NCBI GenBank assembly: GCA_044892505.1 | Contig: CM097882.1 | Span: 379,812,001-379,876,000 of the forward strand | Direction: 5' to 3' | Length of the DNA stretch: 64,000 nt | DNA from: Schmidtea nova | Lineage: Eukaryota | Shown: in pieces, positions 16,538 to 41,640 of the stretch | Numbering within the stretch: the stretch's first letter is position 1 | How the letters are laid out: the number at the start of each line of letters is the position of its first letter | Position numbers and translations under genes: made by a program | Notes under the pieces: model-generated | Told to the model about the DNA's origin: nothing | Databases searched by the model: none | Seen by the model: the letters and a program-made list of their open reading frames with translations, nothing else

Positions 16538-16911
16538 TGTTGGGCCAGCCAAATCGAGCAGCATCTGAAAATAATGTACAATCAATAAAATAAATTAAAT
16601 ACAGAATAACAACAAAATAAATTACCAACACCAAAGCGTAACAAAATAAGCGGCAACATCTAAAAGAAATAAAGTATTAACCAAAACAAAATAAAACTCA
16701 AGAACTTACTCATGCGAAACAGAAAAAATCTGAATATGACAGCGCGTGGGCGGATGTCACCGAAGAGCTAAAACAAAATCAAATAAAAATTAAATCGTAC
16801 AAAAAATAAACTTACCGCATGATTAACCAAATAAATCATTGAGTTGAGTTAGGCACCAAAAAGCCGGCAACACAAAATAATGAAGCAAACATACACACAT
16901 ACTCGATGCTG

Positions 16912-17047
16912 ATTGGCTAACCAACAACACCGGTTGAGTATAAATACTGAAGTCAAATCAGTATTTGACAATGTCATTTTACCGAGTGCAAGTTGTAACT
17001 GATAACTTGTAGTAATCTTGTGAACCAATCGAAAATAAAAGGTAATT
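16912..17047 (+). promoter_or_regulatory. LTR core promoter, poly(A) signal and candidate major splice donor
   Basis: ATTGG (CCAAT box) at 16912, TATAAATA at 16939-16946, hairpin GTCAAAT-cagt-ATTTGAC at 16952-16969, AATAAA at 17034-17039, and AG|GTAATT at 17041/17042. Confidence 0.6.
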
Positions 17048-17976
17048 TCGAGTTATGTTTTGATGTATTTAAACCCTCATAATTATGTTAAAATCCATAA
17101 GGTTTTCCGGAGGCCTAACAGCCTGACGGATTCTTTGGCCTCTCAGCGCAACACACCTTATCGGTTGTGAGGTACTGATGCGGCGGGACCATAAGTTTAC
17201 TAAATACTTGATGGGGGAAAAAGGGGATGCACATAGGGTATCGAGTAAGACCTAATGATCATGAACTAAGTCAAGGTAGAGACGGTCTAGTACAAACGCT
17301 ATGCATCACGATAATAAGGTATCGAGTGACAGTTAATGGTCATAAATCGAATCAAGGTAAAGCTCATTTCGCAAGGGAAGATATATACATGAGGTATCTT
17401 GACGAGGGGGTGTACCTTCAAGGAGTGCTGGTACATCAAAAGTCGATGAGAATCGGGATAGGTAAAGCGTAACATGGTGGTCAAAGGACATTAGCGCCAA
17501 GGGGCAGTAGTGAACCGAATGAGTTGCTAATAAATACATATAATCCCACTGAGGGCATGAAAAGTCAGACCCGATAGTAGATAAAATTAGTGCGTTTCTC
17601 AACGAAGTAGTTGACTAAGGGATTACTAAATTTTCCCCGTGACGTGAATCTTGATAGTTGCTGATGATGATCCGTAAATGAACCATGTTGAATGAATGAA
17701 AATGATCGATGAGAAATTAAATGTAACGTAAAATATGATTGTAAATAACAAGTCGAAATGAGCGTAGCTAAAACCAACTGAAATTGCGGAGTGAATCAAC
17801 TCACCCAAGTAAAGTCACCACCTACATGAACACCGCGACCAATGGTCTAGTAAATTATATACGAGCTACAAGGCCTACGGCTAATAGAACGATAAACCAA
17901 GTAGGTTGATCGACATAAATATCGATGGTCGATGATAGAGTCTGTCAGTTAACCTAAAATTCCATTTCAGAGTGAC

Positions 17977-18612
17977 ATGATGAAGACCGAATATCTCATG
18001 AAGGAGCCGGTAGGACCCCTAACCGTCAAATCAGAGGAGTACATTCTACGGAGGAAACGGCGCATCCGCTCCGTCATCACACCAAAATTACCTATCGAAA
18101 TCCAAGGAGAGAAGGAGGCCCCACGCCAAATTTTCAACTCCGCACGTAGACACCTGCGTCGATGGACAAGGACCCATATGAGCACAGCGGCAAGTATTCC
18201 CGCCTGTGCATTCCAACTACAGCTGAGGTGGGAAGGCGATGTCAATTGGACGCCCTCCCCGAACCCCACCAAAGATGGATACGAAAGATGGTTCTATCAA
18301 TTTGTAGATGAAACACAACAACCCCGCTGGGTACTAAGCACCGGAATGATGACCGGGCAGGCATTCGGCCAACTCGGGTATTTGCTGCTAGACAGGCCTC
18401 GGTGTGGTGACACTGGGGAAGTCTTCGTTTACCCGAACGCCCCAGGCAGTGTTTCCGTGGATCAACACCCCGAGCCCAAAGACCTTCGCCTCTGGGAGGT
18501 GTTCATTTATCAAAACAAACTGAGTTGGAATCCGGCCCCCGAACTATACCATGAAACAGGGATTCGCCGAGACGAGAACCCGGCCGATCAAGAGTTACGA
18601 CCATACAATTGA
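17977..18612 (+). CDS. LTR-encoded 211-aa protein of unknown function
   Basis: Intact ORF, identical in both LTRs, preceded by the acceptor-like TTCCATTTCAG. Confidence 0.6.
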   Translation: MMKTEYLMKEPVGPLTVKSEEYILRRKRRIRSVITPKLPIEIQGEKEAPRQIFNSARRHLRRWTRTHMSTAASIPACAFQLQLRWEGDVNWTPSPNPTKDGYERWFYQFVDETQQPRWVLSTGMMTGQAFGQLGYLLLDRPRCGDTGEVFVYPNAPGSVSVDQHPEPKDLRLWEVFIYQNKLSWNPAPELYHETGIRRDENPADQELRPYN

Positions 18613-18789
18613 TCACGAGGACGACATCCCAATGAACGAATATCTGTTGTGAATTAAAAATATATGTATCCATTTAAAAGGGTTTTGTTTTGGTTTTGGA
18701 TGCATGGGGAATGAGTAAGGATAAGGGTGCAGTTGTTTAACGGTAAAATGGTGACTGAGAAACCAAACGATACATACATACCCTAGTTA

Positions 18790-19371
18790 ATGATACATTA
18801 CTCAGATATGGACGAAAATCCCAATCTAGATTACAAGCAAGAGGCACGCGAACATAGAGCACGATCTCGTGTCCTCGAGAGTCGCTTGAGACAGCTGAAT
18901 GAGGAGCACCAGCGGATTAAGGCAACATGGTTTAATCCTGAGAGGGTTAAAACCATCTTACAAGCCCGATACAGAGCGGAACGAACGATCGATGAACAAG
19001 CGAGAGAGGTCGCAGCCCTGAAATTAGAGTTGGCCAATTATTTAAAGGTGTCTACCCAAGACTTCATCGCTGAGCAATTGCGTCCAGTGATTAGAGCGAG
19101 CACCTTTAACAAATGGTTAAATTCGACATCAGCAACGACGAGTACGCAAACCGACGAAGAGATAATCGTAACTACGGCAACCGAGATGACCACAATCATA
19201 CCACGAGGGTCGCAGAGGACAAAACGAAGGAACCGCTTAGGGGCGAAAAAGCGGAGGGAGCGACGCGCATATGCAGATCGCGTAGGAATAGAAGTAGACT
19301 TGCTCAGTGGCCTATCTGAACAAGAACTACTAAATGTAATTAGACCCTCTGTATTGTTAAACTATAAATAA
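18790..19371 (+). CDS. LTR-encoded 193-aa coiled-coil protein with an Arg/Lys-rich motif
   Basis: Intact ORF containing KRRNRLGAKKRRERR; AATAAA follows the stop. Confidence 0.6.
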   Translation: MIHYSDMDENPNLDYKQEAREHRARSRVLESRLRQLNEEHQRIKATWFNPERVKTILQARYRAERTIDEQAREVAALKLELANYLKVSTQDFIAEQLRPVIRASTFNKWLNSTSATTSTQTDEEIIVTTATEMTTIIPRGSQRTKRRNRLGAKKRRERRAYADRVGIEVDLLSGLSEQELLNVIRPSVLLNYK

Positions 19372-19761
19372 ATGTATAAAACTAATGATTTGACTTGTCT
19401 TGTTTGTTTGTGGAATGTCTGAGAATTGAATATAACTAAAACCCGGATTCATGTAAAACTGCAGATGCGCTAAGATTAAATTACCCTAGAGCAAAAGAAA
19501 GAGCATAAGTGGGACCGAAAGAAATCCACAGACGCCTTCTATCGGTAGTGGTGGACCCGTGAATAAACAAGGGAATAGTAGCCGAAAGGTTGCTCACCTG
19601 CCTTGTCATTTCACAACGTTGACACAGTACCAACATGATGAGTAGTTAGGGATACATCATGGGTGTCAGCGGGGGAATGTTTTTATGTTGGCGAGATCAC
19701 CCTAACATATAAAATCATGAGGATCTCAGTTGTCAATCTAACCAACACACCAGCATAAATT

Positions 19762-19780
19762 TGGGGGCTCAGCCGGGATT
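19762..19780 (+). promoter_or_regulatory. Primer-binding site, tRNA-Pro-like
   Basis: TGGGGGCTCAGCCGGGATT lies 6 nt after the LTR end. The canonical Pro PBS is TGGGGGCTCGTCCGGGAT (2 mismatches). Confidence 0.85.
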
Positions 19781-20313: not shown

Positions 20314-20772
20314 ATGGAGAACAAAATAAAAGAAATGCAAACGTTTTTCGAGACAAATAACGAGACAATGGAGATAATAATGAGAAAGTTAAGACGACTC
20401 GAGGTAGGAGGATATCACAAACCGACAAACAAAACAGAAAGAGCCGAAATGATGATGAGCATAAGCGAGAATAAGATAACAGTGGATACAGCAACACGAT
20501 ATCAGTGGTATAGAGAAAGATTAAACAACCCTGAGATGAATATCGAGTGCCACAGGCTAGAACAACAAATTGCAACAAAACACGATGAGTGGATAAGAAT
20601 AACAACCGAACATACGAGACAATATCTGACGTGTTACATCTGTGAAATGAATAAGATACAGATACTGTTGTTGCCGTGTGGGCATTATCGATTCTGTAAT
20701 GAGTGTAAAATAAATGAACGATGTCCTATGTGCAACCTTCCCGTATCCGAGAAAATAACAGTGTACTTGTAA
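20314..20772 (+). CDS. 152-aa protein with a C-terminal IAP/MDM2-type C3HC4 RING (no BIR domain)
   Basis: CYICEMNKIQILLLPCGHYRFCNECKINERCPMCNLPVSEKITVYL at the extreme C-terminus. Confidence 0.85.
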   Translation: MENKIKEMQTFFETNNETMEIIMRKLRRLEVGGYHKPTNKTERAEMMMSISENKITVDTATRYQWYRERLNNPEMNIECHRLEQQIATKHDEWIRITTEHTRQYLTCYICEMNKIQILLLPCGHYRFCNECKINERCPMCNLPVSEKITVYL

Positions 20773-23744: not shown

Positions 23745-26700
23745 ATGAGTGATCACAGAGAGGATCTAAGAGAAAAATTCAAGGGCGAACCATTCAACGG
23801 AGACGCCAGTAGATTGGATACGTTCCTGAAGGAATTTGGTATATTTGTGGATATATGCGGATGGAGTGCAGAAACGTTGGCAAATCGAATCCCGCTATAC
23901 TTGAAAGATAGCGCATTGGATCTGTATATTGAAAAGAGATCGGGAAGTAGTCCACCCAGAACGTGGGAAGCGATCAAGGAGTTCTTCCAACAGACGTTTG
24001 GGATAAACAAAGTGCTGAATGAAGCATTCGATGAGTTCTCAGCAAGAAAACAGAGGAGAAATGAGTCAAATGCGGTGTACGCAAGTGAATTAAGAAAGTT
24101 GGCGAAACTGGCATTCAACAGAGGAAGTCCAGTAGACGAAGAATTGATGACAGCGTTATTCGTACGAGGTCTCAGGAGACCTGACATCAGAGCACAAGTG
24201 GGATGCAAAGGATGTAAAACAGTAGATGAAGCGTTGGAAGCAGCCAACCTATTCGAATTGCATATGGCAATGAATGACATGAGAATTACGGCGGTAATGG
24301 GAAAAACGACGGAAGATGAAGAACAAGGAAAAAGAAACATGAATCAAAGTATTCCCCATTCGCAGAGATTGTTCAAAGAACCGCCAACGAGGAAGAATAA
24401 CGGATATATTACGGTGAATACGAATGGAGGAAATAGTTACAATGATAGGCAGAATAGGCAATGTCAGACGTGTGGAAAAAACGGACATTGGCAACAAGAT
24501 TGTTTTCAGAATGTAGCCTGCAAACTGTGCGGACAAAAAGGTCACTCAGAGAATCGATGTTATGGGAAAACGTGTTACACATGTGGAAAAACCGGACACA
24601 TGTCAAAAGACTGTAATCAACAGAGAAATTGGTCAAACAGTGGAAATAGACCGAATTACGGGAATCGACCAAGCTATGGGAATCAAGGTCAACAACGGAA
24701 CAACCCAAACAGCAGTGCAAACGAAGCTAGTATGAAAGAAGCTAAGTTGAGACAGGAGGTGTCTAGATTACACGAGATAATCGAAAGCATGGCAAAGGGA
24801 AGCCAACAAGCTGCTCAACCAAAGATAAACATGATCCAGTTAATAGAAGCTGAGGCTGAAAGAGAAAATAGAGAAAGCCAACAGAAACATAACCAAGAAT
24901 GGGCTAGAGTACGACGAGAAGAAGAACAAGTCAGGCAACAACGATTACAACAGTTAAAAAAGGGAAATCCAAGGATCAACATGATGCGAGCAATGATGGA
25001 AGAGAAGCAGCAGGATGAGTCAGACGAGTTAGAAGTTAAAGAGAAAAGAAACGAAGAGCAGAAACAAGAAGAAGTGAGTCAGGAAGTAGAAGCCACAGAG
25101 CAGAATCAAAAAGTTGAAGAAGTAGAAAAAGAAACAGAAATAGAAAAAGAAACAGAAAAAGAAACGAATCAAGAAGAGGAAGTGAGAATCAAACAAAGAG
25201 GAATGTTGGTGATCATGCCGAATGATCACGTGTGGCGATTCAAATACGATGTAAAAGAAGAAGTGGGAAGATTGTTCAATAAAGTAAATGAGATGATGCC
25301 GGGAGTGACGAAACTGCCCAGAGAAGCATTCCTACAAACAGAAGATCTACCAGAAGTGAAGTTAAAGATGACTGATATATGGGAAGATATGGGAGTAACG
25401 GAGACGAAAATAAACGTGATGATCATCAGAGAGGTGGAACCGGAGAAAATCCCACCACCAGTGAAACATCAAACTCGGATCAGTCGAATATTCAAAGGAA
25501 AAATAAGACGAAGACGGTTGGAAGAAATAGATGAGTTGGAGAAAAGAATGGGAAAAGCTGAAGTAACAGGAAACGAGAATGAACTAATACAAGAAGTTAG
25601 CAAAAACGAAGCGAGACCAATCGCACATATTGGGATGCTGAGACACCCAAGACAAGAGTTGTCAGATGAAGAAGACGACAGCGAAGTTAGCAGTCTGGCA
25701 GGAGACATGCTAAAGGAACCGGAAAACGAGGATAAAAAGATGGAAGTAGTCGAGACAATAGAAACAATGTCAGTAAAGGAAGACGAAATTCAGAAGCTGA
25801 TGGATAACGCGTTGGAAGTAATCCATAACGAGGAGTTTATTGACACGAAACGATACCGAAAGTTTATACGAGCAGTATGGCAAATGAAGTACAAAGAGTG
25901 GTTACAAGAAAGAGAAGTGAGGGTAATACAAGAGTTCATAGAGAAGTTATTGAAAGAACCACTCAACGAATATGTAATACAAATATGGATAAACGAGTGT
26001 TCACCGAGAATCTGGATAAGGAACCCAATGACAGACGGAATTTACCGATGGGTTGAGGACAGATTGGGAAGCTCGTACCAAGACAAATTCATATATTCGG
26101 AAAACGGATTGGTGAGAAAAGGAACGCATATGATAGACACGGGCATCTGGCCAGGAGAAATAACGACGTTATCTATATGCAACACCAAGAAGGAAGAGAA
26201 CTTACAAGGAATCGTCAAAGAAGCGAATACGTGTTATGAGATGAGAATAAAACCTCAGTTGCTAGAGGCAAAGGAAAGAATCTTGGCAGAGAATTTGAAT
26301 ACGATGATAGAACAGATCATACAACAAATCAAGAAACATCGAAAGAAATTGACGAAAAGCGAGTATGAGAATTTGAAACAGTGTATCGAGAACATACGAG
26401 ATACAAGTCAAACGAGACATTCAAATTTCAAAACAGACAAGCTAATCGCAAAGATGGGAAAAGAAATGTTTAAAAGAGGAGAAGTATCAGATCTGAAGAT
26501 TACCGTGAGATTACCGAATGAAGAGACAAGACAAATTGAGGTAATACCAGATAGTAAAGTGGGAGAAATAGTAGATGTCATCAATGAGACGATATTACAA
26601 CGAGAACGGGAAGATGAATTCGAGGATGACATTGCGATAAAATACAAAGAACACCTACTAAACGAACGTGACGAAAGACGAGCGTATAAAATCGGCATAT

Positions 26701-29700
26701 GGGATAATTATCAGACAATACATGTCATCAGAATGGATGATGTGCAAAGAGCAACACCAAGGGATGAAAAAAGGAGAAAGAAACGACAAGAGGACGTTAT
26801 GCGCAAGCTGAGGCAGATAGTAGAAATCTATCGGAACTGGCAGATGAAGCCAGAATGGGAGACAATATTAGGAGAAGTGGATCTTAACAGACGACGATTG
26901 ACGCCAGTGGAAAAACAATGGGATAACAAGGAGAAATGTTGGAAAGTGAAAAGAGGCGTGTATGAAGAAGATCCGGAAGGAGAAGACGGATATGAACTGA
27001 ATACGAAACGGATATGTATGGTAACAAGGAAGTTATTACCAACGGACTTAGACGGACCAGAAACTGCAGTAATATGGGCAGAATTGGAGAAACAGAAAAC
27101 GAGTGAATTGATAGAGCTGTTGAGAGGAAACACTCGGGGAAAAAGACAAACAATAAAAGGCTTAGCACAATTCATAATCTCAAATGGAGAAGATATAACG
27201 AACTTGAGAAAAGTAGCTAAAGCGATAGCAGAATACAAGAGAGTTAACGAGTGGTGTCCAGAGCAACTAGACGATGTAATAAAAAAGTGGAGAAACAAAG
27301 AGTTTGCGGAGGAAACGCCACAGAAAATACATTTGAGGATAATGTATCCGAATCAGAGAAAAGAAGAGTTTTGGGTGATGCTAACGGAAAAAGTGAAAAG
27401 TGTTAAAGAGAAACTGATGTACGAACTACCATTCCACCTGCAACATCAAGGACGATCGTTGGATAACAATTTGGAAATCTGGCTGACACCAGTGCAATTG
27501 GATCTAATGAATACGCTAACAGTGGCACAAATAGTGGGTCAACCACTGAAGTTTAAAGAGGAAAAGAAAGCGAAAGGAAGCATGAGTACACCAAGTCCGA
27601 TGAAGTCAACAATGACCCCAGGAACAAGTTCGGGACAAGCAAAGACAACACCAATAAAAACGAGAGAGAGAACACCGCCAGAAGCGTATGACGTCGATGA
27701 GATACTAACAGATAGTGATGAGGCGATAGAAGAACTAACGAAGTTGACTCAAAAACCAACGGCGAATATTTTCGACAGAATAATAGAGATGCCAATAACG
27801 TCACCAGCAGAAATCGACGACCAAGGAGTGGAACAGGAGGTAGTCATAGAAATGGTAAACGATTCGGAAGACGAACAAGAACAACCACAGTTTACTCAAG
27901 AAATGGAAAGATGGTTGGAACAACGAGCAAACGAAGGAAGAGATGTGACGGAAGAAACAGGAAGAGCAACGAGATTTGTAGAAACCGGAACTGGAATGGA
28001 AAAACGACCAAGAGGAAGATCAAAGATAGATCCAGCAACAGCAATTCCAAAGACAAGAGAAGAAAGGAGACAAGAGCAATGGGAGATTTGCTTGAAGAAA
28101 TTGGATAAAATCGCAGAGATCAGAGGAAAAGAAGAGAATCAAGTTTGTCAAGGAGAAGAATGGCTCACCAAAACGATAATGGATGTGTTAGCGATAATTG
28201 ATCCAGAATTAAAGAATTTGTGGCGGATAAACGAACCTAGTACAAAGGCACGGATGCTACACAATGCAATAGCACCGATTATGCCAGAATTAATTAAAGC
28301 GAAAACAAAATCGAATCATCTAGATTGGCAAGGAACCACAATGTTAATAAAAAGGCTACTGAACGGAGCAGAAACGGACAGCAAATATCTAGTAGCAATC
28401 TCGTATACAATATACAATTTGTTAACGCTAAGCCGAGGAAGTCCGAAGTCAAGTCCGATGGGAAGACATATTAAAAATACGGCGTTGATTATCGAGAAAG
28501 AAATTGAACCATATATCCTCAGAAAAGGAGGATGGGAAAAGTTCATAAAAGAGAACCAGACGAAAGAAGGCTCAAACGTCATGAGAAAGAAACTCGAAGG
28601 AGTATTGAGAGAAATGGAGAATAGACAAACGATGCAAGGAAACGGAAGATCGACGTTGAATTTGAACTCGATAATCATGATGATGTTAGTATGGTTGTTA
28701 AGCACAGAAGGTGTAACAACGTTCGAAGTATTTGATTGCGATCAAATGAAGTTAGGAGAAAAGTACTCATTGAGAGGTACGGAGCAATGCAAAGATGCAA
28801 CTCCCGTAGAGTTAAAAGAGATTAAAAAGGAACAATGGTACAACGTGTATCAAGAGGCAGAACTAATAAAGACAATGGTGAATGAATGCAAGGTGCAGAA
28901 GACGAGATTCGCATTTTATTGTGGGAGAGGACATTATTCAGCAATTGTCATGCCAGGAACAGAAAGAGAACCAATCGTGTTGCAAGGAGAAGACTGCGAA
29001 GCATTATTTAAACATGGAGAAGTAACAACGAGAGATAAAATCAAGATAAGAGGAAAGCCAGGAATGATGTTACAGCAGACGTATTATGTAGCAGGACGAA
29101 TTACGGGAGGAGAAGGGTATTGTCAAGGAGAAACCTACCCAATATTCGGAGTGCCTGCAACCAACTTAGTTGTGATGGATACGTACATAGTTGAACTGAA
29201 AAGTTACGAAGCATTTTTTGAACCAACCACAGGAGAAATGAAAACGTTATCCATGTGTAAAATCGACAGAAGCATGTGTCAAACGGGAATGTCAACATTG
29301 GTGTATAAACCAAAGGTGAACGAATGTCAATTACAACTGCTACAAGGAGCAAAGTTTGACGAAATTCAAGGGAAAACATTCCAAGAAGAAGATGATGATG
29401 ACAAAGCTAGAGCAAAACATCTCAAAGAGGCTTTAGAGAATAAAAGACAATTGAGACCAGATCACAAAGAAAAACGGATAGAGATGAGAACCACACCAAC
29501 AGTGCTGATAACCACAAATCAGGATGTGGGAATGAGATTCATAAAAGGGAAAGCAACCCTTAAGTGCAGTACAACAGTATACGAAACAAACTATCCAGGA
29601 ATATACGTGTCAAAGCAAGAAGTGCCGAATGCGAAACCCAAGATTGACACCATGGATATCAAGCTACACTTGTATGTGAATAATAAAATGGATTTCTTAT

Positions 29701-32700
29701 TCCATAGAGGACAAGCCTCATTGCAAAAAGTGTACTATGACCTGATAAACAACGATTGTATACTGAATCGAGAAATATTAAAGACAAAGTTGGCCGTAGC
29801 GATTACGAATCCAGATAGCGCGATGCCGTTATTACCACTGAGAGAAGGACATTTCGGAAGAGTGGTCGGAGAAGCAATGTATGTATACATTTGCGAAAAG
29901 ACACACGCATCGCTAGCAACAACAACGCAGTTGAAACCTGGACAATGTACAAACGAACTAGAAATCGATTACAAAGGAAAAGTACGATACGTTCAACCGG
30001 TGACGAGAATCATCAATCCACCAAGTTTTGAACCAAATCCATTCAACTGTAGTAACGCGTACGGACCGCTTTATCAGAAGCCAGATGGCAAATGGGTCAT
30101 GTTCCCAGGAAGAACTGAAGTATTAGCACCAAGAGAATTTGAGCTAATGCAGTTGTCAAAAGATAGACAGTTCAGCGACGTAGATGTCTCAAACAACGGA
30201 ATCTATAGTCCAAAAGATCTGGAAGCAGCAAGACAGAATATACTATTTCCGGCAAGAAGAGAAGCATTACTGTCAAATATCGTAACGATAACGGGAGGAA
30301 CGAATTATCGAGAAGGACCGAATTACGAACTGCTGTTGTCACCGGCACATTTCAAGAAAGCCACAGAAAATATGATGAAGGCGATGTGGGGAAGATTCCT
30401 GATATTTGGACAAATGATGGCTGGAATACTGGGAGTTATATTGATAATACAAATCGTCAGAGTGATAATAACGCAGATGTTAGCGTGTTTCGACATCTAC
30501 AAGAGAGAAAAGAAAGTGAATTGGAAAATGGTAGTAGGATTTTTACCATTCCTTGCGAAAACGATGGTGTTACATGGACACTCAAAAGACATACATCGAA
30601 TAAAGAGGTTGTTGAAGATACTTGCAAAAATGAAAGGAACTAACGAAGATGTCGGAAGAAAATTCAAAAAGATAATGCAAGATGAACAAGCAAGACGACA
30701 ACTGAAGAAGGAAAGGAAAGGATTATGGGAAAGAGTGAGAGGATATCGAACACAAGATGATTCAAGTAATGATGACGATGATGATGACGATCGAGGAGGA
30801 CAAGCGAATATAAACCAGATTCCACAGTATACCGAAAAGAGTGCAGTTGAGAATTGGAGATACAGCGCTCCACCTCAGTCGATGTATAACGAACCGATAT
30901 ACAAAGCGAAGCCGAATATGATGCAGATGATGCCGATGACAAGTATATACCCGATAATTCCAGAAGGATGCAAAGTAAAACGAGGTAGTAGCGTAAACTC
31001 GTTGGAAGACACGCACACGATAGCAGTTATGTCCACAAATATGGGACCCATCTTAACAACAACCGTAGAAATAAACGGAAGAGAAATTGAAGCTATGATC
31101 GATACAGGCGCGAATATTTCGGCGATCGACATTAATTATATACCAGAGAAAAACCAAGGAGAAATCGAGAAGACGAATGTACATGTAATCGCGTGCAGTC
31201 AAGAGACAGTAGAAGTAGCCGGAAGATGGTTTGTAAAAATTAAGCATCGAGGTGCAGAGATCAACACGTACATCGCTGTAATACCATCGCTGAGTGTACC
31301 ATGTATTATTGGAACTGACCTGATGCCAGACCTGTTCAAGGAAATCGTGATTGATCTAGGAGCAATGAAACTAAAAGATAGAACAGGAAAAATTTGCAGA
31401 ATGAAAGTTAAAGTGGCAAGTGCAGAACAAATAGTAGTGCCAGCGAGACATGAAAAGATGTGTTATGTCAAGATCGATTCAACAATAAAGGGAGATATGA
31501 TATTCGAACCAAGTAAGAAGTTCGAAGCGAAGAAGGAATTACCAATGGCAAGAGAACTGGTTACGACAAACCAAGAAGGTGAGATACCGATTAATCTGGT
31601 AAATTTCGACGAAGAGGACAAGATAATATACGAGAATGAGAGATTGGGTAAATTGACACCCATGTCCGAAATCGAAATACCAGACAAGAATGAGTGGGCA
31701 AAGGCCAAAGAAACGATCAAGCAAAGTAGACTAGGAAACATAGAACCATCCAAAGATATGGAAATACGAGAATTCGAGTCTAGCACACTCGCGGTTCAAG
31801 CGTATGAAAGATTAATTGAAGAAATTAATGTCGAGGACGACATTTTTAAAGGACCAGGGGGTGGTTCCAAAGATCACAACGATAAAGGAGACGCCGAAAA
31901 GGAGAACAACGAGGATAACAACAGCAACAGCGACAACAAAAGAACGGAAGATGAGGAAAGAGAGAGACAAGAAGAACCGAAGCCAACGAGAAACGACAAG
32001 AAAGGAGAAGCCGAAGAACGAGACAACAGTGGAACAAAAGATGAACATGCGAACTATGGAAAACGAACAGGAAGTCTACTTTTGAGACCAGAAATGTTGT
32101 GTATTGCGATATTGATAACAATCATCGGACAAGGAGAAGCCAAGAAACAACACGTCACGCTAGAGATAATCAGAGGAAACGAAGTATACGAAAGAATATG
32201 CTGGAAAGAAAACATGAGGAAAAACGATACGCTGAAGTGCATATTGTCAGATTTGAAGAAAGACGTCATCCAAATCAAAGGATTGGAGAAAGAAAAGTCA
32301 TACATAATATGCGCAATAAAGCAGAGAGGAGAACCGAAAGCACCTCAAGTAACTGCATGTCAATTATATAAAGCAACAGAAGCGCTGAAAATACAGAAAT
32401 GGATTGAGAAAAGAAGCGAAGAGACAACGAGAAGAACAGAAGTAGAATCGGAGAAAGGGAAGAATCAATCTGAAGCAGAAAAAGGAATCGGAAACCGAAC
32501 GGAGAAAGAAAGAATAACCAAAAATTCAGCGGGAAAATTAACATTCCAACCGGAATTGATATGTGTAGCATTAATACTAATCCTCATTAAGAGAATCATG
32601 GAGGACATAGATATTAGCGTAATGACGTTAGTAAATATCCAAGACCAACGAACAACGAACGGAAGATGTTGGGGACGAAACAATGAGGTAATTGGAATCA

Positions 32701-34019
32701 GCGAAACAAGAGAAAGTCGAGAGGCAGAGACAAATGAGGAAATCGAGATAACCGAAATGGAAACAGAGAAAACATGTGAACTATGCCTCATGGAAAAGGC
32801 AGCAAACGGAAACAGACCAGGAACAAGCGAGTGTAAAGTGTTCCAAGCAAAGGAGATAATTGAGTTCCCAAAAAGAAAGAAACAAGATCAAGAAACGATT
32901 GCGAATGAAGTAGTAACAGTGGAGATAAAAAACATTGGTCGGAGAACAATTGGGATGTGTTGGAGAAAATACATCGGAGTACCGACCAACAACGTACTAC
33001 CGCAATGCAAAACGAGAGAACGAGGAATCCCGTTTCAACTAAATGGATTCGAAGTCGGACAAGCATATGAAATTTGCGTAATCCGAAGAATAAGAGAAAT
33101 AATACAAAGAAGCCTGGAATGTAAACTATACAAGACGCCAGAGCAAATTAACGGAACAAGAACGATCGAAATGGGAGGAAGTCGACAGAGGAAAAGAAAG
33201 TCAAGAAGAACCACGACAGCCAACAGTCAAGGAACTCAACAGGCAACAACAGAAAGGATGACAATAGAAAACGAACCGGAATCAACAACGTTGATAATAT
33301 GGAAGATCCATAAAAAGGTCCTAGAAATCTGTTGGACGTTGATGCCAAACAGTATGGGAAAGTCCCCACGAAACTGTCAAAAGACATCAAATGACAAAAG
33401 GGAAACAATCGAGGTAGAAATGAGGAAGTTGAAAACAAATGCAGAATACGAAGTGTGTGCAATCGAAGAAGTAGATGCACAAGGAAATCAACAGGAAAGG
33501 TGTGAAACCTATTACACGCCAAGAAACGTAACGATAAAGAGGAGAATCAAAAAGTTAGAATTCCGAGAATTGAGTCAGAAGAGAGAACAAAACGAGAAGG
33601 AGGAGACAATACCAAGTCGACAAGAAAAATGGGAACCAGAGAAAGTGATCGAAGAAGTCAGACGGAGACAACAACAATACGAACAATGGGAAGCAGAATG
33701 GAAAGGTCAATATGGCGTGATGATAAACCAAAGTGAGACTCCAAGAAGGAGCATTGGGAAAACAATAATGGGATTAATCAGCATGGGAGTATTCATAGGG
33801 TGTATACCACTGATAACGATCATGATAGTATGTTGGAGATATGGCATGAGAAATAAGACCATAGCAGTAAAATGGCCAGACGTAAAGGTCATGAATTACA
33901 ACATAAAACTACCAAAAGAAGTACGAGAAGAGCTGAAAAGACGGTCAAGACATGAAGAGATGTGGGTACAGATCGAGGACGAGGAACTGTACGAAGGAAA
34001 ACCAGTAATAGTTGTATAG
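23745..34019 (+). CDS. 3424-aa polyprotein: Gag + 3 CCHC, UBL domains, Bcl-2-like domain, chuvirus-type env, retropepsin, dUTPase-like segment, 4 FN3-like modules, TM
   Basis: Gag FNGD..F..EF..RKQ..NES; knuckles at 24462-24614; EPYILRKGGWEKF (BH2-like) at 28500-28544; signal peptide followed by FDC..YSL..C..FYCG from 28668; TM at ~30395-30480; AMIDTGANIS (DTG at 31101) and IIGTD; terminal TM at ~33765-33836. Confidence 0.93.
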   Translation: MSDHREDLREKFKGEPFNGDASRLDTFLKEFGIFVDICGWSAETLANRIPLYLKDSALDLYIEKRSGSSPPRTWEAIKEFFQQTFGINKVLNEAFDEFSARKQRRNESNAVYASELRKLAKLAFNRGSPVDEELMTALFVRGLRRPDIRAQVGCKGCKTVDEALEAANLFELHMAMNDMRITAVMGKTTEDEEQGKRNMNQSIPHSQRLFKEPPTRKNNGYITVNTNGGNSYNDRQNRQCQTCGKNGHWQQDCFQNVACKLCGQKGHSENRCYGKTCYTCGKTGHMSKDCNQQRNWSNSGNRPNYGNRPSYGNQGQQRNNPNSSANEASMKEAKLRQEVSRLHEIIESMAKGSQQAAQPKINMIQLIEAEAERENRESQQKHNQEWARVRREEEQVRQQRLQQLKKGNPRINMMRAMMEEKQQDESDELEVKEKRNEEQKQEEVSQEVEATEQNQKVEEVEKETEIEKETEKETNQEEEVRIKQRGMLVIMPNDHVWRFKYDVKEEVGRLFNKVNEMMPGVTKLPREAFLQTEDLPEVKLKMTDIWEDMGVTETKINVMIIREVEPEKIPPPVKHQTRISRIFKGKIRRRRLEEIDELEKRMGKAEVTGNENELIQEVSKNEARPIAHIGMLRHPRQELSDEEDDSEVSSLAGDMLKEPENEDKKMEVVETIETMSVKEDEIQKLMDNALEVIHNEEFIDTKRYRKFIRAVWQMKYKEWLQEREVRVIQEFIEKLLKEPLNEYVIQIWINECSPRIWIRNPMTDGIYRWVEDRLGSSYQDKFIYSENGLVRKGTHMIDTGIWPGEITTLSICNTKKEENLQGIVKEANTCYEMRIKPQLLEAKERILAENLNTMIEQIIQQIKKHRKKLTKSEYENLKQCIENIRDTSQTRHSNFKTDKLIAKMGKEMFKRGEVSDLKITVRLPNEETRQIEVIPDSKVGEIVDVINETILQREREDEFEDDIAIKYKEHLLNERDERRAYKIGIWDNYQTIHVIRMDDVQRATPRDEKRRKKRQEDVMRKLRQIVEIYRNWQMKPEWETILGEVDLNRRRLTPVEKQWDNKEKCWKVKRGVYEEDPEGEDGYELNTKRICMVTRKLLPTDLDGPETAVIWAELEKQKTSELIELLRGNTRGKRQTIKGLAQFIISNGEDITNLRKVAKAIAEYKRVNEWCPEQLDDVIKKWRNKEFAEETPQKIHLRIMYPNQRKEEFWVMLTEKVKSVKEKLMYELPFHLQHQGRSLDNNLEIWLTPVQLDLMNTLTVAQIVGQPLKFKEEKKAKGSMSTPSPMKSTMTPGTSSGQAKTTPIKTRERTPPEAYDVDEILTDSDEAIEELTKLTQKPTANIFDRIIEMPITSPAEIDDQGVEQEVVIEMVNDSEDEQEQPQFTQEMERWLEQRANEGRDVTEETGRATRFVETGTGMEKRPRGRSKIDPATAIPKTREERRQEQWEICLKKLDKIAEIRGKEENQVCQGEEWLTKTIMDVLAIIDPELKNLWRINEPSTKARMLHNAIAPIMPELIKAKTKSNHLDWQGTTMLIKRLLNGAETDSKYLVAISYTIYNLLTLSRGSPKSSPMGRHIKNTALIIEKEIEPYILRKGGWEKFIKENQTKEGSNVMRKKLEGVLREMENRQTMQGNGRSTLNLNSIIMMMLVWLLSTEGVTTFEVFDCDQMKLGEKYSLRGTEQCKDATPVELKEIKKEQWYNVYQEAELIKTMVNECKVQKTRFAFYCGRGHYSAIVMPGTEREPIVLQGEDCEALFKHGEVTTRDKIKIRGKPGMMLQQTYYVAGRITGGEGYCQGETYPIFGVPATNLVVMDTYIVELKSYEAFFEPTTGEMKTLSMCKIDRSMCQTGMSTLVYKPKVNECQLQLLQGAKFDEIQGKTFQEEDDDDKARAKHLKEALENKRQLRPDHKEKRIEMRTTPTVLITTNQDVGMRFIKGKATLKCSTTVYETNYPGIYVSKQEVPNAKPKIDTMDIKLHLYVNNKMDFLFHRGQASLQKVYYDLINNDCILNREILKTKLAVAITNPDSAMPLLPLREGHFGRVVGEAMYVYICEKTHASLATTTQLKPGQCTNELEIDYKGKVRYVQPVTRIINPPSFEPNPFNCSNAYGPLYQKPDGKWVMFPGRTEVLAPREFELMQLSKDRQFSDVDVSNNGIYSPKDLEAARQNILFPARREALLSNIVTITGGTNYREGPNYELLLSPAHFKKATENMMKAMWGRFLIFGQMMAGILGVILIIQIVRVIITQMLACFDIYKREKKVNWKMVVGFLPFLAKTMVLHGHSKDIHRIKRLLKILAKMKGTNEDVGRKFKKIMQDEQARRQLKKERKGLWERVRGYRTQDDSSNDDDDDDDRGGQANINQIPQYTEKSAVENWRYSAPPQSMYNEPIYKAKPNMMQMMPMTSIYPIIPEGCKVKRGSSVNSLEDTHTIAVMSTNMGPILTTTVEINGREIEAMIDTGANISAIDINYIPEKNQGEIEKTNVHVIACSQETVEVAGRWFVKIKHRGAEINTYIAVIPSLSVPCIIGTDLMPDLFKEIVIDLGAMKLKDRTGKICRMKVKVASAEQIVVPARHEKMCYVKIDSTIKGDMIFEPSKKFEAKKELPMARELVTTNQEGEIPINLVNFDEEDKIIYENERLGKLTPMSEIEIPDKNEWAKAKETIKQSRLGNIEPSKDMEIREFESSTLAVQAYERLIEEINVEDDIFKGPGGGSKDHNDKGDAEKENNEDNNSNSDNKRTEDEERERQEEPKPTRNDKKGEAEERDNSGTKDEHANYGKRTGSLLLRPEMLCIAILITIIGQGEAKKQHVTLEIIRGNEVYERICWKENMRKNDTLKCILSDLKKDVIQIKGLEKEKSYIICAIKQRGEPKAPQVTACQLYKATEALKIQKWIEKRSEETTRRTEVESEKGKNQSEAEKGIGNRTEKERITKNSAGKLTFQPELICVALILILIKRIMEDIDISVMTLVNIQDQRTTNGRCWGRNNEVIGISETRESREAETNEEIEITEMETEKTCELCLMEKAANGNRPGTSECKVFQAKEIIEFPKRKKQDQETIANEVVTVEIKNIGRRTIGMCWRKYIGVPTNNVLPQCKTRERGIPFQLNGFEVGQAYEICVIRRIREIIQRSLECKLYKTPEQINGTRTIEMGGSRQRKRKSRRTTTANSQGTQQATTERMTIENEPESTTLIIWKIHKKVLEICWTLMPNSMGKSPRNCQKTSNDKRETIEVEMRKLKTNAEYEVCAIEEVDAQGNQQERCETYYTPRNVTIKRRIKKLEFRELSQKREQNEKEETIPSRQEKWEPEKVIEEVRRRQQQYEQWEAEWKGQYGVMINQSETPRRSIGKTIMGLISMGVFIGCIPLITIMIVCWRYGMRNKTIAVKWPDVKVMNYNIKLPKEVREELKRRSRHEEMWVQIEDEELYEGKPVIVV

Positions 34020-34581: not shown

Positions 34582-35994
34582 ATGAGAGCAGAAAGTGAAG
34601 CAGATTACCAAACAATCGAGATTCTAAGAGGAGAGAATCGACAATGGGGAGTAAATGTGACGTGTGTAAAGTGTAAAAATTTACTGTTAAAACCGAGACA
34701 AACGGAATGTGGATGCAGGATGTGCACCAAGTGTATATTGCAAATAATCAGTGAAAGTGAGACAAGAAAGTGTCCAGAGTGTGACGATAAACTACTGATC
34801 AACGAGACAAAACCAGATAAAGCAATACAAAAGGAGATCTGGAAGATAAAAACAGAGTGTATAAACCAACCATGCGAATGGAAAGGACAAATAATCGAGC
34901 TAAGACAACATCTGGAGAAATGTGAAAACAAGAAAGCGATATGTGAAAAGTGCCAACAGACGATAACCATCAAGCAGTCAAAAAAGCACAAGGACGAGTG
35001 CAAAGCAGAGATAATAGAGTGTCAATACTGCGAACAAAGAGAGACGAGAGAAGTAATCGAAACAGAGCATCTCAACGTAGCAGAAGAGAAAGTGTGTAGA
35101 AAATTCAGAGGAATTTGTCCAAGTAATTGTGGAGCAGGAGAAGAAGTGATGTTGAAAGAACATTGGGAACAGTGCGAATCCAGACCAAGAAAGTGCGTAT
35201 GGAGTAAACAAGGATGTGCAGTAAAGAAAACGAGCAAAGAGATGAAAGAGCATTTGGAAACGGAAACGGTACAACACGCCGAGATGTTAACAGCGAATTT
35301 GAACGGAATGGAGCAAACCATACAGAAACTGGGAAAAGAAATCGAATCTCAGAGGATAATGACGGAGTTATTACTGGAAACGAGAGAGCAATTCGAGCTC
35401 ACCGGAGAAAAAATGATGGAGAAAATCAAAGTCATAGAGACATTGGTAAAAGAAGTAAACGTGAGACATCAAATGTGGATACGAGATACAGAGGATATCG
35501 AGAATTTACCGGTCGCACCATATGTATGGAAAATCAAGAACTTCAATGACAAATTCGCAGCAGCAAAAGCAGGAAGTCAAGTGTCGGTAACAAGTCCACC
35601 ATTCTATCTGTGGAAAAATGGATACAAAGTCCGGATGAGAATTTATGCAAATGGAGATGGATCAGGAAAGGAAACGCATGTGTCGTTATTCTTCGCGTTG
35701 TGTAAAGGTGGTTACGACGACATATTAGAATGGCCACTAGAAACAAAGGCTATAATGAGAGTGAAAAACTCGAAAGAAACAATAGCGAGAGTATTCAAAA
35801 TTGATGGTAAGCACGAAGCTTACAAAAGACCAACCACAGAATGTTCATTAGCGACTGGAGAACCAAAATTCATACCACACCAAACAACGTGGGAGATGTT
35901 GTACGATGACAACTTATATGTAGAATTGGAAATCGAAAAGAAAGCAAGTACAACAGTGATGAACACGAAGTGCACGAAAGGATGGTTAGAGTAG
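34582..35994 (+). CDS. TRAF: Intronless full-length TRAF-family protein (RING, TRAF zinc fingers, coiled coil, MATH)
   Basis: CVKC..PRQTECGCRMCTKC..CPEC; PDKAIQKEI..C.N..C.W.G; CVWSKQGC; MATH domain YVWKIKNF..SPPFY..GYKVRMRIYANGDGSGKETHVSLFF.L.KG.YDDILEWP. Confidence 0.95.
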   Translation: MRAESEADYQTIEILRGENRQWGVNVTCVKCKNLLLKPRQTECGCRMCTKCILQIISESETRKCPECDDKLLINETKPDKAIQKEIWKIKTECINQPCEWKGQIIELRQHLEKCENKKAICEKCQQTITIKQSKKHKDECKAEIIECQYCEQRETREVIETEHLNVAEEKVCRKFRGICPSNCGAGEEVMLKEHWEQCESRPRKCVWSKQGCAVKKTSKEMKEHLETETVQHAEMLTANLNGMEQTIQKLGKEIESQRIMTELLLETREQFELTGEKMMEKIKVIETLVKEVNVRHQMWIRDTEDIENLPVAPYVWKIKNFNDKFAAAKAGSQVSVTSPPFYLWKNGYKVRMRIYANGDGSGKETHVSLFFALCKGGYDDILEWPLETKAIMRVKNSKETIARVFKIDGKHEAYKRPTTECSLATGEPKFIPHQTTWEMLYDDNLYVELEIEKKASTTVMNTKCTKGWLE

Positions 35995-36083: not shown

Positions 36084-37244
36084 ATGGAAAACGCAAATGA
36101 ACATGTAAGCGAAGATGACACGAGAAACGAGATGTCAAACGAACGAGAATCAATAGAAAGAGAAATCGAAAGGAGATGTAAAATGGAAGTGGAACAAAGA
36201 ACCAGAGAATTAAACGAAGTAATGACAAATAATTTCTACGAGAAACTAAAATGTGAGAGACGAACGGAGTTATATCAACTAGAACTCGAGGAAGTAAATA
36301 AAGAGATAGTACAACTGACAACACAAATGGAGAAGCTAAAAGGAACGAATGTACGAAGTCGACAGAAGATAGAAGAGACCTATCAGTTGATGAGGAAACA
36401 AGCAGAACATTATAAAAATATGATGAAAACACGAAGAGAAGAGAGGGAGAAACAAGAGGAAAAGATGGAGGTAAAAATACTAGCAATCAAGGCTCAAGCG
36501 AGACATTGGAAGATGGAGTCGAAACGAGTGTATAAAGAAGCCAAAGAAATAATCAGAAAGACAGCATACAGCGAAGATTGGAAACTGTATCAAGAGATAG
36601 ACGAATTGAAAGAGGAATTGGAACAGAAAAAGCGACAAGAACAGACAAACAAAGAATGGAGTCGAAAACGACAGCGATTTATTCGAGAACAGGCGAAGGA
36701 ACTAAAGAAAACGCAATGGCAAATACAGATGATAAATGGAGAAATGCGAGGCATTAGACAGAAAGAGGAAGCGGAAAGACAAAAGTTGATCAGGGAAAAA
36801 GAAAGTCTGGAAAGAGATGTAAATGGCTACCAAGGAGTAGTGACTCAAAAGAAAATGGAACTGAAAGCTGTGAAGGAAAGACATGCGGAATCAAACCGAG
36901 CTTATGAGGAAAATATAACGAACTTGACGAAAGAAAACGAGGAACTGAAACAACAAATAAGAACCCTGAAAGCAGAGAAAGAAACCCCAGAAATAGAAAC
37001 CGAACCACCAGAAGCAGAAGCCCTGAAGAGAAAAGTGGAAGAAATGGAAAGACAAATCGAAACTCTGAGCGAACAATCAGACTACATGGAGTATCTGTTA
37101 GATGAAGAGATACAAATCTCTCGAACGTATCAAGATGAAATCGCAATGTGGCGAAGCAGAGTGGTGTGGTTACCGTTTATACCACCACCACCAATGGAAC
37201 TCCAAGATGAAGGGTTCCATGAACCAGAGGAGACGGATGTGTAA
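36084..37244 (+). CDS. 386-aa coiled-coil cargo protein
   Basis: Long intact E/K/R-rich heptad ORF. Confidence 0.75.
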   Translation: MENANEHVSEDDTRNEMSNERESIEREIERRCKMEVEQRTRELNEVMTNNFYEKLKCERRTELYQLELEEVNKEIVQLTTQMEKLKGTNVRSRQKIEETYQLMRKQAEHYKNMMKTRREEREKQEEKMEVKILAIKAQARHWKMESKRVYKEAKEIIRKTAYSEDWKLYQEIDELKEELEQKKRQEQTNKEWSRKRQRFIREQAKELKKTQWQIQMINGEMRGIRQKEEAERQKLIREKESLERDVNGYQGVVTQKKMELKAVKERHAESNRAYEENITNLTKENEELKQQIRTLKAEKETPEIETEPPEAEALKRKVEEMERQIETLSEQSDYMEYLLDEEIQISRTYQDEIAMWRSRVVWLPFIPPPPMELQDEGFHEPEETDV

Positions 37245-37842: not shown

Positions 37843-39486
37843 AAACCGACCCCTATGAGCCAGAAACATTGAACTGTGTATAAACAATAAAAACATGACA
37901 AGGACAATGTGTGACTTTGTAAAAATGGGTATAAAAGCTACCACCTTATGTGGTTTTGCATGTAAGTTCTGTCACGAACTTTTTATGTATGTTGATGTAG
38001 GTATATGCATGTAATTGCGGGACGCAATTTTAGGGGACCCCGAGTGATGTTGGGCCAGCCAAATCGAGCAGCATCTGAAAATAATGTACAATCAATAAAA
38101 TAAATTAAATACAGAATAACAACAAAATAAATTACCAACACCAAAGCGTAACAAAATAAGCGGCAACATCTAAAAGAAATAAAGTATTAACCAAAACAAA
38201 ATAAAACTCAAGAACTTACTCATGCGAAACAGAAAAAATCTGAATATGACAGCGCGTGGGCGGATGTCACCGAAGAGCTAAAACAAAATCAAATAAAAAT
38301 TAAATCGTACAAAAAATAAACTTACCGCATGATTAACCAAATCAATCATTGAGTTGAGTTAGGCACCAAAAAGCCGGCAACACAAAATAATGAAGCAAAC
38401 ATACACACATACTCGATGCTGATTGGCTAACCAACAACACCGGTTGAGTATAAATACTGAAGTCAAATCAGTATTTGACAATGTCATTTTACCGAGTGCA
38501 AGTTGTAACTGATAACTTGTAGTAATCTTGTGAACCAATCGAAAATAAAAGGTAATTTCGAGTTATGTTTTGATGTATTTAAACCCTCATAATTATGTTA
38601 AAATCCATAAGGTTTTCCGGAGGCCTAACAGCCTGACGGATTCTTTGGCCTCTCAGCGCAACACACCTTATCGGTTGTGAGGTACTGATGCGGCGGGACC
38701 ATAAGTTTACTAAATACTTGATGGGGGAAAAAGGGGATGCACATAGGGTATCGAGTAAGACCTAATGATCATGAACTAAGTCAAGGTAGAGACGGTCTAG
38801 TACAAACGCTATGCATCACGATAATAAGGTATCGAGTGACAGTTAATGGTCATAAATCGAATCAAGGTAAAGCTCATTTCGCAAGGGAAGATATATACAT
38901 GAGGTATCTTGACGAGGGGGTGTACCTTCAAGGAGTGCTGGTACATCAAAAGTCGATGAGAATCGGGATAGGTAAAGCGTAACATGGTGGTCAAAGGACA
39001 TTAGCGCCAAGGGGCAGTAGTGAACCGAATGAGTTGCTAATAAATACATATAATCCCACTGAGGGCATGAAAAGTCAGACCCGATAGTAGATAAAATTAG
39101 TGCGTTTCTCAACGAAGTAGTTGACTAAGGGATTACTAAATTTTCCCCGTGACGTGAATCTTGATAGTTGCTGATGATGATCCGTAAATGAACCATGTTG
39201 AATGAATGAAAATGATCGATGAGAAATTAAATGTAACGTAAAATATGATTGTAAATAACAAGTCGAAATGAGCGTAGCTAAAACCAACTGAAATTGCGGA
39301 GTGAATCAACTCACCCAAGTAAAGTCACCACCTACATGAACACCGCGACCAATGGTCTAGTAAATTATATACGAGCTACAAGGCCTACGGCTAATAGAAC
39401 GATAAACCAAGTAGGTTGATCGACATAAATATCGATGGTCGATGATAGAGTCTGTCAGTTAACCTAAAATTCCATTTCAGAGTGAC

Positions 39487-40122
39487 ATGATGAAGACCGA
39501 ATATCTCATGAAGGAGCCGGTAGGACCCCTAACCGTCAAATCAGAGGAGTACATTCTACGGAGGAAACGGCGCATCCGCTCCGTCATCACACCAAAATTA
39601 CCTATCGAAATCCAAGGAGAGAAGGAGGCCCCACGCCAAATTTTCAACTCCGCACGTAGACACCTGCGTCGATGGACAAGGACCCATATGAGCACAGCGG
39701 CAAGTATTCCCGCCTGTGCATTCCAACTACAGCTGAGGTGGGAAGGCGATGTCAATTGGACGCCCTCCCCGAACCCCACCAAAGATGGATACGAAAGATG
39801 GTTCTATCAATTTGTAGATGAAACACAACAACCCCGCTGGGTACTAAGCACCGGAATGATGACCGGGCAGGCATTCGGCCAACTCGGGTATTTGCTGCTA
39901 GACAGGCCTCGGTGTGGTGACACTGGGGAAGTCTTCGTTTACCCGAACGCCCCAGGCAGTGTTTCCGTGGATCAACACCCCGAGCCCAAAGACCTTCGCC
40001 TCTGGGAGGTGTTCATTTATCAAAACAAACTGAGTTGGAATCCGGCCCCCGAACTATACCATGAAACAGGGATTCGCCGAGACGAGAACCCGGCCGATCA
40101 AGAGTTACGACCATACAATTGA
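39487..40122 (+). CDS. 3'-LTR copy of the 211-aa ORF
   Basis: Identical translation to 17977-18612. Confidence 0.6.
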   Translation: MMKTEYLMKEPVGPLTVKSEEYILRRKRRIRSVITPKLPIEIQGEKEAPRQIFNSARRHLRRWTRTHMSTAASIPACAFQLQLRWEGDVNWTPSPNPTKDGYERWFYQFVDETQQPRWVLSTGMMTGQAFGQLGYLLLDRPRCGDTGEVFVYPNAPGSVSVDQHPEPKDLRLWEVFIYQNKLSWNPAPELYHETGIRRDENPADQELRPYN

Positions 40123-40299
40123 TCACGAGGACGACATCCCAATGAACGAATATCTGTTGTGAATTAAAAATATATGTATCCATTTAAAAGGGTTTTGTTT
40201 TGGTTTTGGATGCATGGGGAATGAGTAAGGATAAGGGTGCAGTTGTTTAACGGTAAAATGGTGACTGAGAAACCAAACGATACATACATACCCTAGTTA

Positions 40300-40881
40300 A
40301 TGATACATTACTCAGATATGGACGAAAATCCCAATCGAGATTACAAGCAAGAGGCACGCGAACATAGAGCACGATCTCGTGTCCTCGAGAGTCGCTTGAG
40401 ACAGCTGAATGAGGAGCACCAGCGGATTAAGGCAACATGGTTTAATCCTGAGAGGGTTAAAACCATCTTACAAGCCCGATACAGAGCGGAACGAACGATC
40501 GATGAACAAGCGAGAGAGGTCGCAGCCCTGAAATTAGAGTTGGCCAATTATTTAAAGGTGTCTACCCAAGATTTCATCGCTGAGCAATTGCGTCCAGTGA
40601 TTAGAGCGAGCACCTTTAACAAATGGTTAAATTCGACATCAGCAACGACGAGTACGCAAACCGACGAAGAGATAATCGTAACTACGGCAACCGAGATGAC
40701 CACAATCATACCACGAGGGTCGCAGAGGACAAAACGAAGGAACCGCTTAGGGGCGAAAAAGCGGAGGGAGCGACGCGCATATGCAGATCGCGTAGGAATA
40801 GAAGTAGACTTGCTCAGTGGCCTATCTGAACAAGAACTACTAAATGTAATTAGACCCTCTGTATTGTTAAACTATAAATAA
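40300..40881 (+). CDS. 3'-LTR copy of the 193-aa ORF
   Basis: Differs from the 5' copy by one L/R substitution. Confidence 0.6.
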   Translation: MIHYSDMDENPNRDYKQEAREHRARSRVLESRLRQLNEEHQRIKATWFNPERVKTILQARYRAERTIDEQAREVAALKLELANYLKVSTQDFIAEQLRPVIRASTFNKWLNSTSATTSTQTDEEIIVTTATEMTTIIPRGSQRTKRRNRLGAKKRRERRAYADRVGIEVDLLSGLSEQELLNVIRPSVLLNYK

Positions 40882-41640
40882 ATGTATAAAACTAATGATT
40901 TGACTTGTCTTGTTTGTTTGTGGAATGTCTGAGAATTGAATATAACTAAAACCCGGATTCATGTAAAACTGCAGATGCGCTAAGATTAAATTACCCTAGA
41001 GCAAAAGAAAGAGCATAAGTGGGACCGAAAGAAATCCACAGACGCCTTCTATCGGTAGTGGTGGACCCGTGAATAAACAAGGGAATAGTAGCCGAAAGGT
41101 TGCTCACCTGCCTTGTCATTTCACAACGTTGACACAGTACCAACATGATGAGTAGTTAGGGATACATCATGGGTGTCAGCGGGGGAATGTTTTTATGTTG
41201 GCGAGATCACCCTAACATATAAAATCATGAGGATCTCAGTTGTCAATCTAACCAACACACCAGCACATCGTAATGGATACAATAATATTCGATTGTGATA
41301 TCACGTTATGATGATCTGAAAGTAGGCAGTTATGTGGAGCATGAGTCATCGCCGAACAAAGGAAATGACGTCACCCCCCATGGGTTAGGAAAATTTTTAT
41401 GACATATCGCGATGACTCATCGATGACTCATTTCAAATTTGAATTTTATGACGTCATCAACGACTCATTTCAATTTCAAATTTTAAATTTGAATTTCCAA
41501 AGGTCAAATAAGGTCAAACCTTCAAACAAGGGTATCATTCGAATGGTCTTTGAGAGGTGCACACAATGGTCATACCCTCGAATGTTTATGGAGGGTTCTT
41601 AACCTTCAAAGGGTGCAAAACCTTCAACCTTTTTCAAACC

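Follow-up and report, generated by a model that had tools for sequence, protein, structure and literature searches.

Defective retroviral genomes, like the non-autonomous deletion derivatives of LTR elements, keep their LTRs and primer site, lose pol, move when complemented in trans and recombine with helpers. In flaviviruses, alphaviruses and hepaciviruses, a single chain threaded through the membrane of the ER is cut by signal peptidase and by a protease that the virus itself encodes. Among retrotransposons, the planarian Burro elements have been described with Gag, SUMO-like, BCL2, Env and protease (PR) in that order in one frame and with a dUTPase-like motif between PR and reverse transcriptase (RT), the largest of them exceeding 30 kb (PMC6431247). 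Elements with the gene order GAG-ENV-POL and a gB-type env are reported from nematodes, bryozoans and flatworms in the accessible part of PMC13524379, in whose main text the word Burro is absent. The accessible parts of PMC8532177 and PMC11410931 describe Burro1 as transcribed and abundant, and that of PMC13465017 cites a mutualism between host and transposon in which the Burro1 B-IAP cargo has an anti-apoptotic function.

The locus considered here is an LTR element of 24.7 kb (16538-41265) within a window of 64 kb, the whole stretch of DNA analysed. It encloses a stop-free plus-strand frame of 3,424 aa (23745-34019, from the ORF list and translation), in agreement with an earlier note that had read this frame as one polyprotein of the order Gag-UBLs-Bcl-2-Env-Protease-FN3x4-TM (Table 1). 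The two LTRs differ by 3 mismatches in 3,218 bp, and the element is young. The primer-site word, which we take to resemble a tRNA-Pro site, recurs after the 5' LTR in other copies and in one sister family. RT, RNase H and integrase are absent from the whole of the window element, which would measure ~29.4 kb were the deleted part described below added back. Each LTR also carries two ORFs (17953-19371; 39463-40881) that are kept in many copies, and the second is recognisable in sister families; the two in the 5' LTR (219 and 194 codons) match no Pfam family, and some copies have short LTRs of ~1.5-1.7 kb without both ORFs. Between the RING gene and gag lies a long leader (21460-22912) in which a 19-nt unit and an 85-nt unit each form a repeat array, the former in tandem.

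The window also holds an intronless 1,001-codon ORF for an SNF2-family helicase with internal 249-nt repeats (4576-7581); an element with long inverted repeats (41320-52404) around a hAT transposase fragment (46424-47899, minus strand) and a 729-codon ORF (48043-50232); and, near the window end, an unrelated gypsy-type protease-RT fragment (62476-63678).

Table 1. Features of the LTR element and its polyprotein frame (window coordinates)
Feature	Position	Strand	Basis or remarks
5' LTR	16538..19755	+	3,218 bp, TG...CA ends; CATC 4-bp target duplication on both sides of element
Primer-binding-site-like 18-mer	19762..19779	+	6 nt past 5' LTR
Accessory ORF with terminal C3HC4 RING finger	20314..20772	+	PF13920, E 3.5e-9
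Gag: capsid and three CCHC zinc knuckles	23745..24614	+	Pfam
Possible ubiquitin-like module 1, label unproven	25188..25430	+	without Pfam match; pN/pS 0.040
Likely ubiquitin-like module 2	26478..26744	+	orthologues match Ubiquitin_4, E 0.03-0.07; pN/pS 0.065
Possible ubiquitin-like module 3, label unproven	27318..27569	+	without Pfam match; pN/pS 0.075
Likely diverged Bcl-2-like helical domain	28050..28580	+	position and weak sister alignment; pN/pS 0.029
Predicted internal env signal peptide	28668..28721	+	hydropathy, conservation
Env ectodomain	28722..30413	+	chuvirus-like (HSV gB-type, class III) fusion glycoprotein, 14 cysteines; pN/pS 0.022
Env transmembrane helix	30414..30473	+	hydropathy, sister families
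Retropepsin	31059..31331	+	catalytic DTG at 31101; pN/pS 0.025
Conserved ~100-aa domain after protease	31377..31679	+	conservation; without Pfam match; place of the dUTPase-like motif of Burro
Deletion junction	31688..31694	+	7-nt microhomology
Predicted second internal signal peptide	32094..32141	+	hydropathy, conservation
FN3-like repeat 1	32142..32384	+	repeat alignment, profile
Conserved hydrophobic stretch, 11 residues	32556..32588	+	duplicate of second signal
FN3-like repeat 2	32607..32864	+	first cysteine pair: one member missing
FN3-like repeat 3	32901..33149	+	most variable domain, pN/pS 0.37
FN3-like repeat 4	33270..33530	+	predicted fold pLDDT 85; FN3 top PDB rows
C-terminal transmembrane helix, then basic tail	33774..33830	+	hydropathy
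Small acidic/coiled-coil accessory ORF, 116 aa	34142..34492	+	kept in other copies
Whole TRAF gene (RING, zinc fingers, MATH)	34582..35994	+	domain scan
Coiled-coil accessory ORF	36084..37244	+	domain scan, other copies
Accessory ORF, signal-like start and TM segment	37318..37842	+	hydropathy, other copies
3' LTR	38048..41265	+	paired with 5' LTR

Pfam searches on the window protein identify a Gag capsid (PF03732, E 7e-6), three zinc knuckles (PF00098), an env corresponding to the Monjiviricetes fusion glycoprotein (PF24664, E 8e-74) and a retropepsin (PF00077, E 1e-10, DTG at aa 2453). These lie in that order in one frame, with env between gag and protease as had been proposed. The part of the proposed order that places the FN3 repeats directly after the protease has a different origin. 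An env DNA search of the 1.25-Gb genome gave 797 first-look candidates, of which 40 were scored and the 20 best other copies taken. All 20 of these best-matching copies depart from the window sequence at ~31694 and enter RT-RNase H-integrase in frame (Pfam confirmation in two of those copies). In each of ten downstream stretches two ankyrin blocks (Pfam confirmation in one stretch) are followed by the window sequence, which resumes at 31688, and most stretches read in frame across the FN3-like block to the same stop. Three copies joined across overlapping stretches yield one frame of 5,087-5,089 codons (4,966-4,968 aa from the first Met), and 27 of 150 scored matches, counted by hand, lie in frames of 5,076-5,114 codons. 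The window copy thus lacks, in frame, ~4.65 kb (~1,550 codons) encoding RT, RNase H, integrase and the two ankyrin blocks, a segment bounded by two copies of a 7-nt word. The adjacency of protease and FN3-like repeats is a deletion junction and not the family's normal protein: Gag, Env and protease keep the order given in the earlier note, whereas the protease-FN3 join is the scar of an in-frame deletion. Because the ends of the deletion do not read GT..AG, the missing segment is not a spliced intron. Pattern counts in the genome give 5 loci with the deletion junction against 116 with the protease-to-RT junction. The frame from capsid through protease is open in 10 of the 20 other copies; in the remaining 10 the position of the break differs from copy to copy, and no common domain border is affected. 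With no stop or shift between domains common to other copies, the reading of the frame as a single polyprotein is not refuted by them.

In its undeleted form the family closely resembles Burro1-4/GYPSM1. Both consist of one ORF of ~4,900-5,100 aa (here 4,966-4,968 aa) with a retrotrans_gag domain and three CCHC knuckles in Gag, a mononegavirus-like env in frame before PR (here PF24664 followed by PF00077) and a domain between PR and RT. Both continue through PR-RT-RH-IN into ankyrins, the part deleted in the window copy, and share TRAF/MATH cargo, long LTRs, TG..CA ends and a short target duplication. The BCL2-like and Ubi2/SUMO-like motifs of Burro have candidate counterparts here, by position or weak similarity. 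The window copy differs in that its TRAF is a separate downstream ORF and that no BIR domain was detected in its RING ORF; the cargo of Burro1 B-IAP is directed at apoptosis control, and the window copy has its RING gene upstream of gag. The order that the earlier note considered unusual, with env before protease in one frame, is already known (PMC6431247). By its layout the element is putatively Burro-type, and from this likeness the host is probably a planarian. With the GAG-ENV-POL errantiviruses, as described in the accessible part of PMC13524379, the window element shares gene order and the HSV/gB-type class of fusogen; there the ectodomain lies between a signal or TM segment and a TM segment, and a furin site is not always present. 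A fused frame, accessory cargo and a second membrane protein are not described in that part of the paper, whose definition of an errantivirus, needing full-length RT and integrase, leaves out the window copy and takes in its undeleted relatives.

For the UBL and Bcl-2 labels of the earlier note, direct domain searches found no match on the window protein itself. The UBL label is nevertheless suggested by the second module, whose orthologue in two sister families weakly matches Ubiquitin_4 (E 0.03-0.07). The Bcl-2 label likewise lacks a direct match, but in another family PF00452 scores near or over cut-off at the same place ahead of the env signal, and the PF00452-positive sister domain aligns weakly with the window segment (hhalign probability 20%, E 0.001). 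A Bcl-2 profile run on the window segment itself reached 6.8 bits, not above shuffles (best 8.6). Both labels, weakly supported here, lean on the published annotation of Burro.

The four tandem repeats are real and carry an invariant CW..C..C pattern. Pfam fn3 matches none of the four on the window protein. A profile built from eight repeats recovers 72 library proteins at E<=1e-3, and PF00041 is present in 13 of the 15 top library proteins scanned; individual repeats score low against this profile. FN3 likeness for the repeat block is 0.88, a value that serves as a lead only. Repeat 4, the sole repeat modelled well, was folded with 15 native repeats only and gave a model with pLDDT 85 and six assigned strands. 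A search of the PDB places FN3 domains or scaffolds in all of its first six ranks, with TM-scores reaching 0.68; T-cell-receptor Ig domains rank lower, and no Foldseek row reaches E<=0.001 (best E 0.017). Profile likeness and the predicted fold of repeat 4 agree with the FN3x4 label, and the four C-terminal repeats are predicted to be FN3-like beta-sandwiches.

Pairwise pN/pS values were computed over full-length copies (20 upstream, 10 downstream). From capsid to protease they lie at 0.02-0.14 in every domain (env 0.022, protease 0.025, Bcl-2-like 0.029, UBL-like 0.04-0.075), and they are 0.09-0.37 for the FN3-like repeats and 0.15 for the TM-tail. Every domain of the polyprotein is under purifying selection in the family, the FN3-TM block included. 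The layout recurs in two sister families of this genome, whose frames span ~5,140 and ~5,680 codons, the latter with the FN3-TM cassette duplicated in tandem (L061:6733-9999, L062:1-1125). Signal and TM segments are kept in these families at 65-75% identity, and the FN3-TM block is the most divergent between families (39% vs 81-97% for env). A further multi-copy family (L073, L074) has a zinc knuckle, a SUMO-like module, a PF00452 Bcl-2 domain and env in one frame, and many Bcl-2 matches in the genome sit in frames of ~3,060 codons.

Among 4,407 public candidate proteins, 5 match the env region (2,296-4,029 aa). Four of the five have env ahead of PR-RT-RH-IN in one chain, and three end after integrase with a signal-like segment, an ectodomain, a TM segment and a basic tail; the FN3 profile matches none of the ectodomains of these distant relatives. 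Distant env-before-pol polyproteins also show an extra protease-like domain after integrase; the regions noted in them are P0003 aa 3350-4029, P0004 aa 3350-3865, P0006 aa 2460-2871 and P0005 aa 2745-2840. There is one cassette in the window family, two in one sister family, and other ectodomains occur in distant relatives.

Hydrophobic segments occur at 28668, 30414, ~32070-32126, ~32532-32588 and 33774, close to the positions previously proposed. A membrane-threaded chain with a cytoplasmic protease, also put forward in the earlier note, is consistent with the single signal-like segment ahead of env and the single strong TM segment behind it, both found in two sister families. Hydropathy, charge and conservation make it likely that the chain is threaded through the membrane and cut by both signal peptidase and the encoded protease. 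In parent and derivative alike, the Gag, UBL-like and Bcl-2-like parts would remain cytosolic. Signal 1 (aa 1642-1659) would send env into the ER, where signal peptidase would free it, and the env TM helix (aa 2224-2243) would bring the chain back to the cytosol. The protease would then hang on the cytosolic tail of env, accompanied in the parent by RT-RH-IN-ankyrin, and would cut the linkers, probably at repeated I-[N/A]-[M/V]-[I/M] words. Ten such words occur against 2.5 in shuffles, an enrichment biased by the choice of the word after inspection, and they are kept at aligned places at only some sites. Signal 2 (aa 2784-2799) and the last TM helix (aa 3344-3362) would turn the FN3 block into a type I membrane protein of its own, with a basic tail and with luminal repeats that have paired cysteines. 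The 11-residue stretch between FN3 repeats 1 and 2 (aa 2938-2948) misfits this simple model of one signal and one TM segment. The viral polyproteins named at the outset offer a parallel in working only; they belong to unrelated viruses, and no homology is claimed.

The five deleted loci have the features of a non-autonomous derivative, in that RT and integrase are lost while LTRs and primer site are kept. The window copy departs from the usual derivatives of this kind in keeping gag, env, protease, a second membrane module and all accessory genes in frame. Three of the five have paired LTRs >99.5% alike and their own 4-bp target duplication, the LTR ends of the remaining two being incomplete within the stretches fetched. 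The frame is unbroken at two of the five and interrupted by stops or a frameshift at the other three, one of which is also cut short. The family shows two other pol deletions that keep the frame (L076, L077); their ends differ from those of the window deletion and overlap by 13-14 nt, and one deletion ends ~22 nt from it.

We conclude with good confidence that the locus is a Burro-type giant Ty3/gypsy element whose polyprotein gene has lost RT, RNase H, integrase and ankyrins without a shift of frame. It likely spreads only by borrowing enzymes from full-length copies, and its remaining polyprotein is predicted to pass through the ER membrane and to be cut into pieces. The structural half could come from the window copy itself, RT and integrase being needed in trans. 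A misjoined assembly, by collapse or chimera in a repeat-rich genome, has a negligible chance of accounting for the protease-FN3 join, since the identical junction recurs on three contigs, at five loci that differ in their flanks and diverge by 4-5%. The history of the deletion calls for closer argument. The deleted copies are ~4-5% apart, as far from one another as from full-length copies even within 150 nt of the junction. This speaks for a rival reading in which separate full-length parents each underwent the deletion at this short repeat on their own, every product being a dead end; the two different in-frame pol deletions, one ending ~22 nt off, also speak for such recurrence. However, a base 9 nt to the right of the junction is common to all five deleted loci and occurs in 6 of 99 undeleted copies (5 of 17 among undeleted copies with the full 7-nt repeat; chance ~0.002 or less), and two deleted loci also share a variant immediately left of the junction, so that recurrence appears quite improbable. 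Apart from the junction-adjacent base, no allele is present in at least three deleted copies yet absent from the full-length sample. The deleted lineage is most simply read as a mosaic, produced by one deletion and then repeated recombination with helper genomes. The deletion would have arisen once, likely by template switching at the 7-nt repeat, and its descendants would since have exchanged much sequence with helper genomes co-packaged with them. Young LTRs and mosaic flanks suggest that the deleted copies are mobilised in trans by helper enzymes.

That usefulness explains the persistence of the pol-less form, whether by supplying extra Gag, Env, protease and FN3 that correct the 1:1 ratio of Gag to Pol in a one-frame element or as an anti-apoptotic cassette for the host, is very unlikely. 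All three distinct pol deletions are in frame, pN/pS among deleted copies equals that among full-length copies, and a host-protective role of Burro1 cargo is mentioned second-hand in the accessible part of PMC13465017; yet the form numbers only 5 copies vs 116, three of the five are broken, low pN/pS can come through recombination with helpers, and three in-frame events are a small sample. A rival of another kind concerns expression. Words reading YAG lie just 5' of the ATGs of gag and the accessory genes (20308, 23741, 34133, 34578, 36080 and 37313), in a context T-richer than the remainder of the A-rich strand, a pattern that suggests splicing onto each of them. In this rival reading a spliced subgenomic mRNA of its own would be the main source of the FN3-TM block, and perhaps of env, the fusion to pol being incidental. 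The ATGs of gag and four accessory ORFs sit 1-3 nt past YAG, and Met2784, at the start of the second signal, is preceded in the window copy by a CAG 2 nt away. This CAG is, however, CGG in 4 of 10 full-length copies, Met2784 is missing in 1 of 14 copies and is Leu in one sister family, the Met codons near env are without a preceding acceptor-like word, and the frame through IN-ankyrin-FN3 is open in three families. We regard separate expression as improbable, and favour the single cut polyprotein.

The headline domain order is thus known, and its tail module is possibly undescribed. The FN3 repeats, second signal, C-terminal TM helix and pol-less sublineage are not named in the accessible part of the Burro section of PMC6431247, and neither the C-terminal signal-FN3x4-TM module nor the pol-less sublineage was found in the accessible part of the literature. 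For scans of genomes the locus carries a caution: an order of domains that looks striking in a single repeat copy can turn out to be the scar of a deletion. As a natural pol-less derivative, the sublineage has mosaic flanks that point to co-packaging and frequent template switching. The family itself carries, behind integrase, a predicted second type I membrane protein that is conserved in three families of the genome and paralleled in distant relatives; it would give a retrotransposon a two-glycoprotein surface like that of gB-using viruses. A bolder possibility, tentative and on balance unlikely, is that this signal-FN3-TM module at the far end of Pol, released from one chain together with a class III fusogen and fast-varying between families, works on the surface of an infectious particle, either in attachment or as a decoy for receptors, with pol-less satellites riding their helper like defective interfering genomes.
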